DNA from: a virus
Lineage: Duplodnaviria; Heunggongvirae; Uroviricota; Caudoviricetes
DNA length: 64,000 nt
IMG/VR virus record: IMGVR_UViG_3300013307_000018
Span: 16,312 to 80,311 of that record
Reading direction: 5' to 3' (one strand)
The first letter of the stretch is position 1. Every line of letters begins with the position of its first letter. Positions 29,538 through 40,136 of this stretch are shown here, in pieces. The notes beneath the pieces were generated by a model that was not told where the DNA came from, did no database searches, and saw only the letters and a program-made list of their open reading frames with translations. The position numbers were made by a program, and so were the translations under genes.

Positions 29538-30179
29538 TTATTTCTCGTTCGTTGATAGGGAGTCTGTTGTTCCCATTTCTTGTGTTTCACGGGCCAGCAG
29601 AATCATGGCTTCTTCCTGCTCGTACCGTTTGGCATTGATTGTGATATCATTGAGCGTCATGCCGAGGGCGTTACGGTTACGTTCGAGTAGCTCTGCTGCT
29701 TGTTGTTGTAGGTCTGCGTCCCCTCTGGTCAACACTTTCAATGACAACCATTTCTCGACGAGGTAAATACGGGCAAACCCGGGTGCAAAGGCCACGATAG
29801 TGGTAGAGTTCGCGATGAGGTCAGCGAGCTTGATGGTCTGGGCCTCAGCCGGCGCTTGTGCGGTGTGGAGGCGGTCGAGGGTACGACGCACCACACGCGG
29901 ACCGTCGTTCGGTTTAGACACATCAGTTAACCAGTCCACTAAATCCGCAACCGTATTGCCAAACAAATCCCGGATAGTGTCGAGCTTGATGGGGGTGTCT
30001 TCCACGACGTCGTGCAGCCAAGCTGCCGCAATCATCTCGGGTGTCCCACCGTGGGCCGCCACAATGTGTGCGACCTCTTCAGGATGTGTCCAGTAGGGTT
30101 CACCCGTGTAGTTACGTTTTTGTTCGCAGGCCTCGTGTGCTGCGATAGCAAAGGCTTTTGCCCGTTCGATGATGTTCAT
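29538..30179 (-). CDS. small alarmone hydrolase (Mesh1/SpoT-type HD (p)ppGpp hydrolase domain)
   Basis: [27 protein letters not shown] and [11 protein letters not shown], the canonical RelA/SpoT hydrolase HD signatures. Confidence 0.75.
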
Positions 30180-31519: not shown

Positions 31520-32479
31520 TTATTTTGCAGGCGACGCGTTCGGGAACAACGTGTTCGTTGGAATGAACGGTACTGCACCACCCGGTATCATGGTGGTTGG
31601 TAGCACGCCTTTCCATTGCTTCGCAAACAAATACTGGATGTAGTTCGGTGAACTGGATAACGCTTCCTGTACGGCGCGGGTTGCAGCGGCTTCAGCTTCA
31701 CCTTGCTTCATGGTTGCGTAAGCGGCAGCATCTGCAGCGGTACGTTGAGCGTATGCCTCAGCGTCTGCCTTGTTGCGTTGGATATCGTTGTTCACCATCT
31801 CTTTCTGTTTGGTGAACCCCCGCTGTTTGATTTCAACTTCCTCTTTCTGCGTGGCTTCAATTTTCTCTTCATAAGAACTTTCAAATGCCACGTCTTTTAA
31901 GTTAACCCCTTCCAGCACCAACATCGACCCGAGTTCCTTCGACAGATGTTGCATGATGTCAGCACTCACCGCTGTACGCTTTTGAATCAACAACGGTGCT
32001 GTAAAGAGACCAAACACGTCTTTTACCGCCGAGGGGATTTTCTGTGTGGCGAGCTGGGCAACCATGTTATCCGAGGTCCGGTATTGCTTGTAGACTTGCT
32101 CAACCGAGGCTGGGTTAATGTGGTAGTTAATCGAGATATCGATGGTGACCGTTTGTAAATCACTGGAGTATGACGACAGTTTCCCAGTAGGGTTGTAGGC
32201 AAACGAGCGCAGTGAGATATAGTGAACATCATCGATATAAGGCCATTTCAGACTTAAGCCCGGTTCTGCTGTTCCGACGACTTTACCATTGCGGGTAATG
32301 ACGCCACGCTCACCTTCATCCACGGTGTACACAGCTTTGAACAAAGCAACAATAACCACCAGGGTCAGCAACAACAACGCACCCAACCCAAAGATACGTT
32401 TAACAAGCTTGACAGCATTTTCACGTTCAGTGGCAGCTTCGCCTGTTACGTTAATGCCATTACCACGAAAATCATTCAT
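31520..32479 (-). CDS. SPFH/band-7 (prohibitin/HflC-like) membrane protein
   Basis: N-terminal TM helix then TVDEGERGVITRNGKV...GLSLKWPYIDDV SPFH core; C-terminal Ala/Glu-rich coiled coil. Confidence 0.7.
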   Translation of the reverse strand: MNDFRGNGINVTGEAATERENAVKLVKRIFGLGALLLLTLVVIVALFKAVYTVDEGERGVITRNGKVVGTAEPGLSLKWPYIDDVHYISLRSFAYNPTGKLSSYSSDLQTVTIDISINYHINPASVEQVYKQYRTSDNMVAQLATQKIPSAVKDVFGLFTAPLLIQKRTAVSADIMQHLSKELGSMLVLEGVNLKDVAFESSYEEKIEATQKEEVEIKQRGFTKQKEMVNNDIQRNKADAEAYAQRTAADAAAYATMKQGEAEAAATRAVQEALSSSPNYIQYLFAKQWKGVLPTTMIPGGAVPFIPTNTLFPNASPAK

Positions 32480-32540: not shown

Positions 32541-32566
32541 AATAAAGGAGACCCACAGGCCTCCTT
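32541..32566 (-). terminator. intrinsic terminator
   Basis: plus aaaataaaaaaataa-AGGAGACC-caca-GGCCTCCT. Confidence 0.5.
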
Positions 32567-32577
32567 TTAACCTACGA

Positions 32578-33702
32578 TTACTGATTGAAGCCAAACGTAC
32601 GGTTTTTACGTACTTCAACATCATCATCGTTAATACTTAACGCATCCGCTAGAGGAACGCCGTTGGTAAAGCCTGCCATGTCTACTGGTGGTAAGTCCAT
32701 GGCGTCACGCAGTGCCGTGGCTTCTTCCACCGTGAGGTTACGGAATTCCAGTACCTGGAACAACCGCCCGCGACGCAGCAGCGCGGAATCAATCTTGGCG
32801 GTGGTACTGAGGTTGGTTGAAATAAAGAACTTGGTATCGGTGGCAGCAACCCCGCTGGTCGCGTTCAACAACGTAGACATTTCCTTATTGCCGTTGTCAC
32901 GTTTTTCCAACATCATGTCCGAGTCTTCCGTGAGCATCACTGACCCACTAGGCAAGTCACGGACCCGTTCCATGAAACTACGGTGCCCTATGGTGGTAAC
33001 ACTGTCCGCCATAAAGGTATCGGGTTCACCCGACACACCACGTGCTAACATCACGTTGCGCAAGAACGACGATTTGCCGGTACCTGGCCCACCAATAAGA
33101 ATCGTGACGTTGTTAGCCGATGCTTTGAACGCGTCCCAGAATTCTTCTGGGGTTTGTTTTAGATACGGATACGCCAGCGCAAAATGTTTGAGTGGGACAA
33201 ACGGTGGTGGAACAATGGTTTTGTCACGCAGTGTATCGCGCTCATCCACATAGAAGCGTTGGAAGCTCTCAGGGATAGGACCCTCCCGTTCCTGCAGGCA
33301 CGCTTTCAGGGCTTCAATTAATGGCTCATAGCCGAACCATCGCATGGCAACGTAGTTAGGTGCCGCGCGCTGGTACGCCCCGATTGCCATGATTTCTGAG
33401 TCAGTCACCACAAGGTAATGATGTTGCAGTTTGATGAGTTTCAGGTCCCAGGTCGGGAAAATACCGTTGCGATATTCGTCCACGAGTTCCGGCATGTATG
33501 TTTCGGGCTTTGTCTGGTATTTCAACCAATGACTGTGTGTGTACTGGGCAGAGTCCACACCACGCTCCATGAAAAATAATCGGGCCGCATCGCGCAAGAT
33601 GAGATCGGGATTGCTTTGTTTGGCGAGGGATTGATAGATTTCACTCAAACGGGCGAGTTTGGCGTTTAAAGGGCGGGCAGTGGTCGGTAATTCAAATTGC
33701 AT
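32578..33702 (-). CDS. AAA+ ATPase (374 aa), paralog of 8561..9988
   Basis: Walker A IGGPGTGKSS; ALLRRGRLF; shared C-terminal FGF end. Confidence 0.8.
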   Translation of the reverse strand: MQFELPTTARPLNAKLARLSEIYQSLAKQSNPDLILRDAARLFFMERGVDSAQYTHSHWLKYQTKPETYMPELVDEYRNGIFPTWDLKLIKLQHHYLVVTDSEIMAIGAYQRAAPNYVAMRWFGYEPLIEALKACLQEREGPIPESFQRFYVDERDTLRDKTIVPPPFVPLKHFALAYPYLKQTPEEFWDAFKASANNVTILIGGPGTGKSSFLRNVMLARGVSGEPDTFMADSVTTIGHRSFMERVRDLPSGSVMLTEDSDMMLEKRDNGNKEMSTLLNATSGVAATDTKFFISTNLSTTAKIDSALLRRGRLFQVLEFRNLTVEEATALRDAMDLPPVDMAGFTNGVPLADALSINDDDVEVRKNRTFGFNQ

Positions 33703-33726
33703 TAGTTACTCCAGTAGTAATGATTA

Positions 33727-34068
33727 TCAGGACTGAACAGTACGGCCGCGTTTTACCACCGGCAACGGTTCAGTAATCGGTTTGATGGATTCAATTTGAC
33801 GCCAGGTAAAGGCGTCCATTTGCAACAGATGGCGGTCCAGGGCATGTTGCAGGTTCAGCCAGAACTCCGGTGTCGTACCGAAGTAGTTACCTAACCGCAC
33901 GGCCACTTCATAGGTCACCCGACCTTTGCCACGTAACAGGGGACTGATACTGCCTTCAGGTAAACCGGTAGCCTCAGCCAAGGCACGGTTACTGATATTC
34001 AATGGCTTCATGTACTCTTCGCGGAGTATTTCACCGGGGGTTGCAGGACGGCGGGATACCGTGTTCAT
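33727..34068 (-). CDS. HigA/VapI-type antitoxin-like XRE-family HTH protein
   Basis: PGEILREEYMKPLNIS...LA...GKGRVT...A.RLGNYFGTTPEFWLNLQ matches HigA antidote family (cf. Rts1 HigA HPGEMIARDL...GSTPEFWLRLQ). Confidence 0.75.
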   Translation of the reverse strand: MNTVSRRPATPGEILREEYMKPLNISNRALAEATGLPEGSISPLLRGKGRVTYEVAVRLGNYFGTTPEFWLNLQHALDRHLLQMDAFTWRQIESIKPITEPLPVVKRGRTVQS

Positions 34069-34108
34069 TTACTTCTCCAAATCAATGGTGGTGAGTGGCC
34101 CAAAGAAC

Positions 34109-34600
34109 TTAACCAAACCTGAGACGACGGCAAGGCTCATAGTGACTTCCCCATTCAAATACTAAACGAGTGACGTACTTTTTGTACGGCTTTACGGGCT
34201 CTGCGATAACCCGAGGCATTGTCCAACCCAACGACCGAGGAAAGCGTTGGTTGAGCAAGTTATGGGCAATCACCGTGAGTTGCGCGTTGATTTCAGAATA
34301 CGAGTGCGGTGTGTCACAAACACCCCTGACTTGGCTGCGCGGATATACAGCGGTGGGGATAACCTCATACCGCAGTAAGAATCGCTTTGCATCTTCATCG
34401 TAGCGCGTTTTAAACTGAATCTTACCTAACCCATCGTAGATGCCTACACGGTCTTCAATCTCAAAGCGCCCGTTACCCTGATTCACAAACAGAATCTGGT
34501 CCATGTGTCGGGTGATTTCCAGTCGCATCTTTTCCCAATCAGTGGCGAGGGTACACGCAATGTCTCGGACAAAGTTGTCCCCAAGCGGTAAGGTAGCCAT
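34109..34600 (-). CDS. hypothetical protein (163 aa), immediately upstream of HigA-like gene
   Basis: AGAGGAAA SD; no RelE/HigB similarity noticed. Confidence 0.55.
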   Translation of the reverse strand: MATLPLGDNFVRDIACTLATDWEKMRLEITRHMDQILFVNQGNGRFEIEDRVGIYDGLGKIQFKTRYDEDAKRFLLRYEVIPTAVYPRSQVRGVCDTPHSYSEINAQLTVIAHNLLNQRFPRSLGWTMPRVIAEPVKPYKKYVTRLVFEWGSHYEPCRRLRFG

Positions 34601-34620: not shown

Positions 34621-34646
34621 ATAAAAAAGGGAGCCGAAGCTCCCTG
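34621..34646 (-). terminator. intrinsic terminator, UUCG tetraloop
   Basis: plus aaataaaaaa-GGGAGC-cgaa-GCTCCC. Confidence 0.65.
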
Positions 34647-34654
34647 GGTATGAA

Positions 34655-35050
34655 TCAGCTTGCCTCAAAATGACGGACCGGCCTTTTCAGGTGAGTGATG
34701 AGATAACGCTTCGCCTGACGGTAATGACGACAGGTCGCCTCGCCTTCCAGGTAGTAGTTACCTTGTGGCAGGATTTGACCGAGCTGCGCCATGGGGATGG
34801 AGAACGTAATCCAATCCGGTGTGCGGTCCGCTGGAACGATTTGAGCCACTTCAACGAAGGCGCACTGCACACCCTCTTTGTTAGCGACCATCATCTTACC
34901 CAACGTCAAATCCCCGAAGTCCGGTGCACCTGCTGCAATGATTGCCCGACGCATCAGTTCCGTCACGCTTGGGAGTTTGGATGGCAACACCGACAAAATC
35001 TGCCCGGTGTAGTCCACAAACCCTTTAAGCTCTTTTTCTTTCTTTGCCAT
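34655..35050 (-). CDS. hypothetical protein (131 aa)
   Basis: ORF track. Confidence 0.5.
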   Translation of the reverse strand: MAKKEKELKGFVDYTGQILSVLPSKLPSVTELMRRAIIAAGAPDFGDLTLGKMMVANKEGVQCAFVEVAQIVPADRTPDWITFSIPMAQLGQILPQGNYYLEGEATCRHYRQAKRYLITHLKRPVRHFEAS

Positions 35051-37650: not shown

Positions 37651-37680
37651 AATAAAGGGAGCACAGGCTCCCTTTTATGC
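37651..37680. terminator. bidirectional intrinsic terminator
   Basis: aaaaaaataaa-GGGAGC-acag-GCTCCC-ttttatg: U tracts on both strands, between convergent genes. Confidence 0.6.
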
Positions 37681-40110: not shown

Positions 40111-40136
40111 AATAAAAAGGGAGCCGAAGCTCCCTT
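40111..40136 (-). terminator. intrinsic terminator, UUCG tetraloop
   Basis: plus gaaataaaaa-GGGAGC-cgaa-GCTCCC, same hairpin as 34629-34646. Confidence 0.65.

Follow-up and report, generated by a model that had tools for sequence, protein, structure and literature searches.

We identified, in the genome of an uncultivated giant phage, a gene whose 113-aa product is shown by profile and alignment evidence to be a complete helix-turn-helix (HTH) protein of the HigA/GraA/YbaQ family, captured from a bacterial higBA-type module and kept without a toxin. Neutralisation of host toxin-antitoxin toxins by this lone phage antitoxin, a role already suggested in a preliminary description of the same DNA, is the leading hypothesis on sequence grounds. 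The most likely function of the protein, in our tentative view, is to serve on its own as a decoy antitoxin directed at HigB-type mRNases of the host.

The analysed stretch of DNA, referred to here as the window, covers 64 kb of a 263-kb metagenome contig from an uncultivated giant (jumbo) phage, the phage origin being backed by tail-fibre/depolymerase PHROGs and by homologues of phiKZ-type ATPases. No match was obtained when the locus was compared by megablast with 50,697 phage records, and the phage is therefore without a close cultured relative; its marker proteins share only about 30 % identity with those of known jumbo phages. The three open reading frames reported previously were confirmed, all on the minus strand, and two hairpins were added to them:

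34109..34600, minus strand: gene of a 163-aa protein, lineage-specific; opening the operon in which HigA comes last
33727..34068, minus strand: gene of the HigA-family HTH protein (113 aa), without a cognate toxin
32578..33702, minus strand: gene of a jumbo-phage AAA+ ATPase (374 aa), conserved independently and abutting HigA here
34628..34645, minus strand: terminator-like hairpin with a T-run, closing the upstream unit just before the 163-aa gene
32544..32567, minus strand: terminator-like hairpin with a T-run, directly past the ATPase stop codon, ending the 163-aa/HigA/ATPase block

The gap between the 163-aa gene and HigA measures 40 nt and that between HigA and the ATPase gene 24 nt, the latter as previously noted, and a GGAG-type ribosome-binding site is present at both junctions. 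With a terminator-like hairpin on either side of the three-gene block and none inside it, co-transcription of the three genes is plausible in the window phage. The position of the hairpin at 34628..34645 is conserved in two related contigs (L009 and L012), and its sequence is found again at 37656 and 40118. A second stand-alone antitoxin-type gene, encoding a small-alarmone-hydrolase-like HD protein, is located 3.5 kb downstream (PMC7229694).

The HigA/VapI signature noticed earlier in the 113-aa product was borne out by a profile search: TIGR02607 (antidote_HigA) matches residues 6-78 with 88.3 bits, against a curated cutoff of 47.7 (E = 2.1e-25). The protein also matches PF01381 (HTH_3; 30.7 bits, cutoff 23) and PHROG 1381, annotated as "plasmid antitoxin with HTH domain". 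Its solved relatives are YbaQ (5.7e-17), GraA (8e-17), Coxiella burnetii VapI (1.7e-14), PaHigA (2.7e-14), and Proteus vulgaris HigA (2.3e-9). Both signature motifs of the family, the N-terminal PGE(I/V)L..E(F/Y) and the C-terminal TTP.FW(L/M)NLQ, are found, and an alignment with bacterial and phage members and with YbaQ shows no variation at residues G12, I14, E18, P22, T65, F69, W70, N72, L73, Q74, and D78. A generic XRE protein, considered as an identity for this product, was ruled out, the protein being a genuine HigA/VapI-family member. The phage protein carries a 30-residue C-terminal extension that is conserved within the phage clade only.

No HigB-like toxin better than E = 0.03 was detected by profile or phmmer search among the six-frame open reading frames of the 64-kb window and related loci, in agreement with the earlier remark that a RelE/HigB-like toxin is missing. 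This search (hmmsearch and phmmer with --max, reading frames of at least 30 aa) used a three-sequence profile and single PF05015 toxins drawn from the loci around the closest HigA homologues in bacteria, and its scope within the 263-kb genome was the window, the other ~200 kb lying outside it. Toxin families in Pfam gave no match among the 10 locus proteins scanned, and PADLOC gave nothing meaningful for the eight scanned. Immediately upstream of HigA, in the canonical HigB position, is the 163-aa protein, which matches no family. For the bacterial homologues (44-46 % identity), a PF05015 HigB toxin is encoded immediately upstream in five of the six checked; one homologue (P0068) is solo. Among phages, HigA homologues were found in 174 records, including many jumbo phages and ICP1, while the one HigB probe used matched only five records. 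Orphan HigA genes are common in large phages and have been annotated there before.

Few genes of the locus are conserved as well as HigA, whose identity across the clade is 64-78 %, compared to 55-57 % for the ATPase and 28-34 % for the 163-aa protein. Contig L011 is a near-identical twin of the window (96-99 % identical). In L009, L012, and L014, two genes, encoding proteins of 140 and 295 aa, lie between the homologue of the 163-aa gene and HigA; direct adjacency of the 163-aa gene and HigA was seen only in the window and L011. Judging by gene order, this adjacency is a lineage-specific deletion: the 163-aa gene abuts HigA because the two intervening genes were lost in the window lineage. 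More generally, the content of this slot between two conserved genes differs among the relatives. As estimated from a dN/dS of 0.18 between the window and L011, a lineage without the two upstream genes, HigA is under purifying selection after their loss. The HigA homologues of phages AH04, Miami, PCH45, and FBKp24 are found in genomic contexts unrelated to one another, and the window HigA falls into a tight clade of its own, all of whose members come from uncultivated contigs. HigA is thus shown to work independently of its present neighbours. The proximity of HigA to an SPFH gene, common to the window and Klebsiella phage Miami, was examined as possible synteny and rejected, the two SPFH proteins being unrelated by BLASTP.

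The 163-aa protein, called an ORFan in the preliminary description, has indeed no match in Pfam, NCBIfam, PHROG, or PADLOC; it does have homologues, 26-34 % identical, in three to four related uncultivated jumbo-phage lineages, so that the term applies only approximately, and a search of 1.84 billion proteins found no more than five representatives. Neither Pfam nor PHROGs gave a match for the 140-aa and 295-aa families, and PDB profile searches with all three proteins found nothing. An AF2 model of the 163-aa protein built from the five-row alignment reached a pLDDT of 80.5 (48.8, and unusable, from the single sequence); it had no significant structural neighbour and matched no known toxin fold. 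By its model, the protein does not look like a recognisable toxin. The earlier proposal that it might be a new toxin partner of HigA is further weakened by the two genes that intervene in L009, L012, and L014 and by its much faster evolution (28-34 % identity versus 64-78 % for HigA).

A broader form of this proposal is that of a previously undescribed phage-borne module, a lineage-specific operon of the 163-aa gene, the 140-aa membrane protein gene, the 295-aa gene, and HigA. HigA would have been recruited to a non-RelE partner as antitoxin or regulator and would control or neutralise effectors of new fold, the 163-aa protein being the minimal effector, or toxin, left in this phage and the 140-aa and 295-aa proteins being optional components. 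The 163-aa family and HigA do occur within one terminator-flanked operon in all four lineages sampled, the 295-aa gene of the relatives occupies, 12 nt upstream of HigA, the position canonical for a toxin, and the three families are all tiny, unannotated, and lineage-specific. However, all genomes that show the co-occurrence are related and broadly syntenic, and it is therefore not independent evidence of linkage. Given also that HigA persists under purifying selection without the 140-aa and 295-aa genes, that the 163-aa protein is far less conserved, and that the HigA homologues of other jumbo phages have entirely different neighbours, we consider such a module improbable.

On the other side of HigA, the 374-aa protein matches PF00004 (AAA; 28.2 bits, cutoff 21.2, residues 201-321), with Walker A (GGPGTGKS) and Walker B (MLTEDSD) motifs visible in the translation, and belongs to PHROG 14322 (E = 1.8e-68). 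It is about 31 % identical to the ATPases of Phabio and phiKZ-like phages, and no HigA-like gene is annotated beside the ATPase in the two phages checked (Phabio and PS119XW). A paralogue is encoded at 8561-9988 of the window. Gene order and profile matches indicate that the ATPase is an independent conserved jumbo-phage gene that happens to abut HigA. The two proteins could still form a functional pair in which, for example, the ATPase would remodel or stabilise the antitoxin in the manner of a TAC chaperone; the terminator-free 24-nt junction inside a terminator-bounded block would fit, as would the best solved relative of the ATPase, the protein translocase/chaperone BCS1. We hold this pairing to be highly improbable, as the two genes are separated by an intrinsic terminator in L009 and L014 and by an inserted 288-aa gene in L013, no ATPase is present at this position in L012, PHROG 14322 is conserved in phiKZ-like phages and Phabio, with no annotated HigA-like neighbour at the two loci inspected, and the window encodes a paralogue. 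Moreover, the HigA C-terminus shows no TAC-like chaperone-addiction extension common to the relatives beyond about residue 108. Of the co-expression that had been read from the 24-nt gap, co-transcription thus stands as plausible in this phage; functional coupling does not follow, the tight junction being specific to the window lineage and the ATPase being conserved without an annotated HigA-like neighbour in the two phages checked.

Turning to HigA itself, its dimer would most likely serve as a decoy antitoxin during infection. Its acidic and hydrophobic face, made up of the PGEILREEY and TTPEFWLNLQ motifs, would bind ribosome-dependent mRNases of the host HigB/GraT type (PF05015) when the host antitoxin is degraded or titrated, and translation of phage mRNA would go on. 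This is the face by which GraA holds GraT, with 13 GraA residues in contact with the toxin (PMC6393540). At these positions, the window protein is identical in eight of 13 cases and conservative in four, and nine of the positions do not vary among the five proteins of the clade that were compared. The contact residues, which are a family signature as well, are also largely kept by YbaQ, an E. coli regulator without a toxin, and their conservation therefore does not discriminate between a decoy and a regulator. The HTH face of the phage protein is conserved too, so DNA binding has probably been retained as in canonical HigA. Indeed, the recognition helix and Arg46 match the toxin face in conservation, which speaks against a decoy in that it fits a DNA-binding role equally well. 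A further argument against the decoy is the usual specificity of a type II antitoxin for the cognate toxin.

Nearly as likely as the decoy is a YbaQ-like stand-alone regulator of the HigA family, binding as an HTH dimer to a palindromic operator on phage or host DNA and having no role towards a toxin. The HTH is intact, with the recognition helix LLRGKGRVTY invariant in the clade and the DNA-backbone contact Arg46 retained. The best full-length PDB match is E. coli YbaQ, also of 113 aa, whose gene in K-12 is toxin-less and annotated as a DNA-binding transcriptional regulator; the bacterial homologue P0068 is likewise solo. In a neighbour-joining tree of 95 HigA homologues, which has no support values, rests on only 100 columns, and is suggestive only, YbaQ and other jumbo-phage HigAs are close to the phage clade. 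HigA of Pseudomonas aeruginosa regulates genes beyond its own operon (PMC6987408), the solitary HigA2 and HigA3 of Mycobacterium tuberculosis are described as regulators, and a fixed DNA target would fit the high sequence conservation of the phage HigA. However, no operator-like palindrome was found in the 40-nt and 54-nt upstream spacers, the one inverted repeat upstream being the terminator hairpin, and a de novo search of the 64 kb for recurrent intergenic palindromes returned terminator hairpins only. A search for the GraA/PaHigA operator TTAACGTTAA that tolerated one mismatch found no site, a result to be read with the caveat that the operator of this clade may differ. In addition, the surface acidic residues E13 and E18 of the toxin face are invariant or conservative in the clade, for which a pure regulator offers no obvious reason, and a gene that turns up in virulent phages and changes its genomic context from one to the next looks more like an accessory or counter-defence gene.

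For the decoy reading, there is precedent in toxin-less antitoxin homologues that serve lytic phages in counter-defence, namely AdfN (PMC11825919) and the chimallivirus AdfM (PMC13309987), and in TAC modules it is the HigB toxin that brings about abortive infection (PMC11980606). The gene of the small-alarmone-hydrolase-like HD protein, the second stand-alone antitoxin-type gene of the window, adds to the plausibility. Our literature search returned no functional study of a phage orphan HigA and no report of one as a counter-defence protein. If the decoy reading is true, toxin-less HigA proteins would be the first demonstrated case of phage counter-defence by type II (binding-type) antitoxins and would extend the enzymatic, DarG-like cases of AdfN and AdfM; they would also suggest how large phages could shield cytoplasmic mRNA from ribosome-dependent RNase toxins. 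The window locus adds one more uncultivated example, together with a comparative dataset on the independence of HigA from its neighbours. Culturable phages with a homologue, such as PCH45, Miami, and AH04, offer a better test of the general question.

Among characterised proteins, GraA of Pseudomonas putida and PaHigA (PDB 6F8S, 6F8H, 6JPI, 7CSV) are antitoxins of PF05015 HigB-type toxins and share TIGR02607 with the phage HigA. These fully folded five-helix HTH proteins align with it without gaps over residues 6-81, and their Arg46 contact to the DNA backbone is kept. Unlike GraA and PaHigA, the phage protein has no upstream toxin gene and no nearby operator of the TTAACGTTAA type, comes from a jumbo phage of virulent type, and bears the 30-residue C-terminal extension. 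YbaQ (PDB 2EBY) has the same length, aligns over residues 2-102, gives the best PDB E-value (5.7e-17), and is also without an adjacent toxin, but is only about 34 % identical to the phage HigA, compared to 44-46 % for the toxin-linked bacterial HigAs. YbaQ has moreover lost Arg46 (Asn), which the phage protein keeps, and its chromosomal, housekeeping context differs from that of the phage gene.

The phage orphans of PHROG 1381 (Erwinia AH04 gp233, Klebsiella Miami gp155, FBKp24 gp216, and those of Serratia PCH45, Yersinia phiR1-37, and Vibrio ICP1) resemble the window HigA as toxin-less HTH genes of large lytic phages, with 32-49 % identity; the genomic context is unrelated in each, and the window protein forms a separate clade. 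Finally, AdfN (DarG1-like NADAR, T-even phages) and AdfM (DarG2-like macrodomain, chimalliviruses) embody the same concept of an antitoxin homologue carried by a lytic phage without its toxin (PMC11825919, PMC13309987). Both are enzymatic type IV antitoxins, experimentally proven to reverse DNA ADP-ribosylation, whereas HigA is a type II antitoxin and would have to bind its toxin stoichiometrically. In common with AdfN and AdfM, it is a homologue of a bacterial antitoxin, with no toxin found in the window, in a phage genome of lytic type.

Every gene of this region is encoded on the minus strand, and the order of transcription is:

34655-35050, minus strand, 131-aa ORF (first)
34645-34628, minus strand, terminator-like hairpin with T-run, between the 131-aa and 163-aa genes
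34109-34600, minus strand, 163-aa ORF (second)
33727-34068, minus strand, 113-aa ORF, HigA (third)
32578-33702, minus strand, 374-aa ORF, AAA+ ATPase (fourth)
32567-32544, minus strand, terminator-like hairpin with T-run, directly 3' of the 374-aa gene
31520-32479, minus strand, 319-aa SPFH/band-7 protein (fifth)

The 163-aa and 113-aa genes are separated by 40 nt and the 113-aa and 374-aa genes by 24 nt, and each gap has a GGAG-type ribosome-binding site. Since hairpins were found at both ends and none between them, the 163-aa, 113-aa and 374-aa genes form one terminator-flanked block in this phage. The hairpin AGGGAGC-TTCG-GCTCCCT is identical at 34628-34645, 37656-37673 and 40118-40135 of the window, always intergenic; GGGAG...CTCCC hairpins occupy several more intergenic sites, and it is found at equivalent positions in relatives. 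It appears to be an intrinsic terminator reused by this phage. The window belongs to a 263,081-bp metagenome contig (ENA ERZ27252479) whose products include tail-fibre, depolymerase and adhesin proteins and an ATPase occurring mainly in phiKZ-like jumbo phages. Megablast of the locus matched no close cultured relative, and marker proteins of the contig are ~30 % identical to known phages.

By every sequence criterion, the 113-aa product is a bona fide member of the HigA/VapI family, as the preliminary description had proposed from its signature. It scores 88.3 bits against TIGR02607 'antidote_HigA' (curated cutoff 47.7), also matches PF01381 and PHROG 1381 'plasmid antitoxin with HTH domain' (E = 6e-23), and carries the full set of family signature residues (PGEILxEE..., TTPEFWLNLQ..D); with the C-terminal TTPEFWLNLQ motif present, it is more than a generic XRE protein. 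Among solved structures its best matches are E. coli YbaQ (of equal length; residues 2-102 align), P. putida GraA, C. burnetii VapI, and the HigA proteins of P. aeruginosa and P. vulgaris. Bacterial homologues reach 44-46 % identity. Five of the six checked (P0007, P0011, P0027, P0028 and P0073), each encoded directly downstream of a PF05015 HigB-like toxin gene, are real antitoxins by context, while the bacterial P0068 and YbaQ in K-12 are solo.

To look for a toxin, we ran a profile of three cognate HigB toxins from bacterial HigA neighbourhoods, and each toxin singly, without any heuristic filtering against all six-frame ORFs of 30 aa or longer. No HigB-like toxin better than E = 0.03 was found in the 64-kb window, the related phage loci or the surroundings of HigA in four cultured jumbo phages, and the scanned locus proteins gave no toxin-family match in Pfam, NCBIfam, PHROGs or PADLOC. 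The earlier statement that no RelE/HigB-like toxin is found thus stands for the window. Because the defining adjacent toxin was sought within these 64 kb of the 263,081-bp contig and not found, the locus does not qualify as a HigBA toxin-antitoxin module.

The 163-aa protein had been described as an ORFan and a possible new toxin partner. A word-index search returned no protein other than the query, and exhaustive phmmer against 1.84 billion representatives gave a family of five members; it is therefore not a strict ORFan, although it indeed matches nothing in the family libraries (Pfam, NCBIfam, PHROGs, PADLOC) or PDB sequences. The ORF is a genuine gene that evolves under purifying selection, with a dN/dS of ~0.15 estimated from very few substitutions. 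The AlphaFold2 model from the five-sequence alignment was confident (pLDDT 80.5, pTM 0.75; pLDDT ~90 in the core, residues 18-150), with a predicted topology of helix, three strands, helix and two strands. It resembled no known toxin fold: Foldseek returned nothing from the PDB at E <= 0.001, and the top TM-score against BFVD was 0.42 or lower. The protein bears no mark of a toxin and diverges far faster than HigA.

The closest HigA relatives, from uncultivated jumbo-phage contigs, are 96 % (P0002), 78 % (P0003), 68 % (P0004) and 64 % (P0005) identical, and BLASTP and tblastn comparison of their loci revealed synteny across the region except in its middle, where the content varies. The order in loci L009/L008/L010, L012 and L014 is terminator, 163-aa homologue (28-34 % identity), 140-aa protein, 295-aa protein and HigA, the 295-aa gene stopping 12 nt short of HigA. 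The 140-aa and 295-aa genes were mapped directly upstream of HigA:

L009:4678-5988, 140-aa and 295-aa genes
L012:1160-2449, 140-aa and 295-aa genes
L013:143-1450, 140-aa and 295-aa genes

Both are missing next to HigA in the near-identical twin L011 and anywhere in the window. Because the sister lineage (L009) and more distant lineages both carry them, parsimony indicates loss in the window lineage; on these comparisons the 163-aa gene abuts HigA as the result of a deletion, and the two are no conserved pair. The 163-aa protein is not supported as a toxin substitute, since it shows neither conserved linkage (it is not adjacent to HigA in L009, L012 and L014) nor a toxin-like fold. The 140-aa protein has an N-terminal hydrophobic segment, probably transmembrane. 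Neither it nor the 295-aa protein has a family, PHROG or PDB match, and the two genes form only two clusters among 5.8 billion proteins. It is unlikely that HigA has been recruited to non-RelE partners, with the 163-aa/140-aa/295-aa/HigA operon representing a new module.

The stretch bounded by the conserved 131-aa and 85-aa genes is a hot spot for changes in gene content. A small ORF between HigA and the terminator in the 78 %-identical relative (L009:6360-6480), missing in the window, encodes a peptide of 39 aa that is hydrophobic and basic, VTGQILLALTLGAIVGFSLYRLGVRRRDRRLFEKSRRRK. Next after the ATPase comes the gene of the SPFH/band-7 membrane protein in the window and an unrelated 301-aa (L009:7675-8580) or 284-aa (L012:2833-3687) gene in relatives; Klebsiella phage Miami also has an SPFH gene close to HigA, which showed no homology to that of the window by BLASTP. 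Upstream of the HigA operon by a few genes, L008/L009:104-1114 encodes a 336-aa protein with a weak PF26125 AcrVA2-like match, a position filled by a different gene in the window.

Co-expression of HigA and the ATPase had been proposed from the 24-nt gap. Co-transcription may well hold within the terminator-flanked block of this phage, but the gap is no sign of a functional unit, as the junction differs across relatives: an intrinsic terminator separates the genes in L009 and L014, a 288-aa gene is inserted in L013, and the ATPase is missing from this position in L012. The ATPase belongs to PHROG 14322 (E = 1.8e-68), conserved in Phabio and phiKZ-like phages, and no HigA-like gene is annotated beside it in the two such loci inspected. 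A paralogue was mapped within the window, ~30-33 % identical to the L009 and L013 ATPase homologues over their C-terminal half:

8561-9988, minus strand, 475-aa ATPase paralogue (PHROG 35110, E = 1.7e-99)

HigA is among the best-conserved genes of the locus. It keeps 64-78 % identity among relatives, where the ATPase keeps 55-57 %, the 165-aa and 131-aa genes 39-55 % and the 163-aa gene 28-34 %. In the lineage without the 140-aa and 295-aa genes it is still under purifying selection, with a dN/dS of 0.18; HigA therefore has an autonomous function that is selected for. In the GraT-GraA structure, the toxin sits on a negatively charged surface opposite the HTH, contacting R7, E13, E18, D64, T66 and N72 together with I9, I14, F19, M23, L63, F69 and L73 (PMC6393540). 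The window HigA is identical at 8 of these 13 positions and conservative at 4, only D64 being changed (to G), and 9/13 do not vary among the five clade proteins compared. Nor do the recognition helix (LLRGKGRVTY) and Arg46, which contacts the DNA backbone. Both the putative toxin-binding and DNA-binding faces are conserved. The twin protein (L011:1071-1412) differs at 4 amino acids, two of them (E13D, I14V) in the PGEIL motif, part of the toxin-binding face in GraA, a count too small to interpret.

Where phages carry HigA genes, these are as a rule toxin-less: the window HigA has matches in 174 phage records, including AH04, Miami, FBKp24, PCH45 and ICP1 (with unrelated genomic contexts in each of the first four), while the single PF05015 toxin probe used matched 5 phage records only. 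Orphan HigA in jumbo phages is known as annotation (PHROG 1381; 'HigA family addiction module antidote protein' in FBKp24; 'plasmid maintenance system antidote protein' in phiR1-37), and the window protein is another example; our literature search found no functional study of one.

We rank first, tentatively, a decoy-antitoxin role, in which phage HigA would bind host HigB/GraT-type ribosome-dependent mRNases via the conserved face. The residues of this face cannot tell a decoy from a regulator, because they double as the family signature and toxin-less YbaQ largely retains them; a solo YbaQ-like regulator is a possibility almost as likely. Against the regulator, no operator-like palindrome was found, the recurrent intergenic palindromes of the window being terminator hairpins only, nor does the window contain the GraA/PaHigA operator; this is a weak negative, as the clade's own operator may differ. 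The two roles do not exclude each other, for canonical HigA both binds toxin and regulates through DNA binding.

A second gene near HigA bears on the decoy role:

29538-30179, minus strand, stand-alone RelA/SpoT-type HD hydrolase (PF13328 HD_4), 3.5 kb downstream of HigA

Its product, 68-70 % identical in related phages, has Rel/SpoT hydrolase domains and MESH1 (E = 5e-10) as PDB relatives and looks like a small alarmone hydrolase (SAH). As SAHs serve as the type IV antitoxins to toxSAS toxins (PMC7229694), it would be a second toxin-less 'antitoxin-type' gene near HigA, which weakly supports an anti-TA flavour of the region. The decoy role is consistent with abortive infection by the HigB toxins of TAC modules (PMC11980606), and would have proven parallels in two orphan DarG-like counter-defences, AdfN (PMC11825919) and AdfM (PMC13309987).
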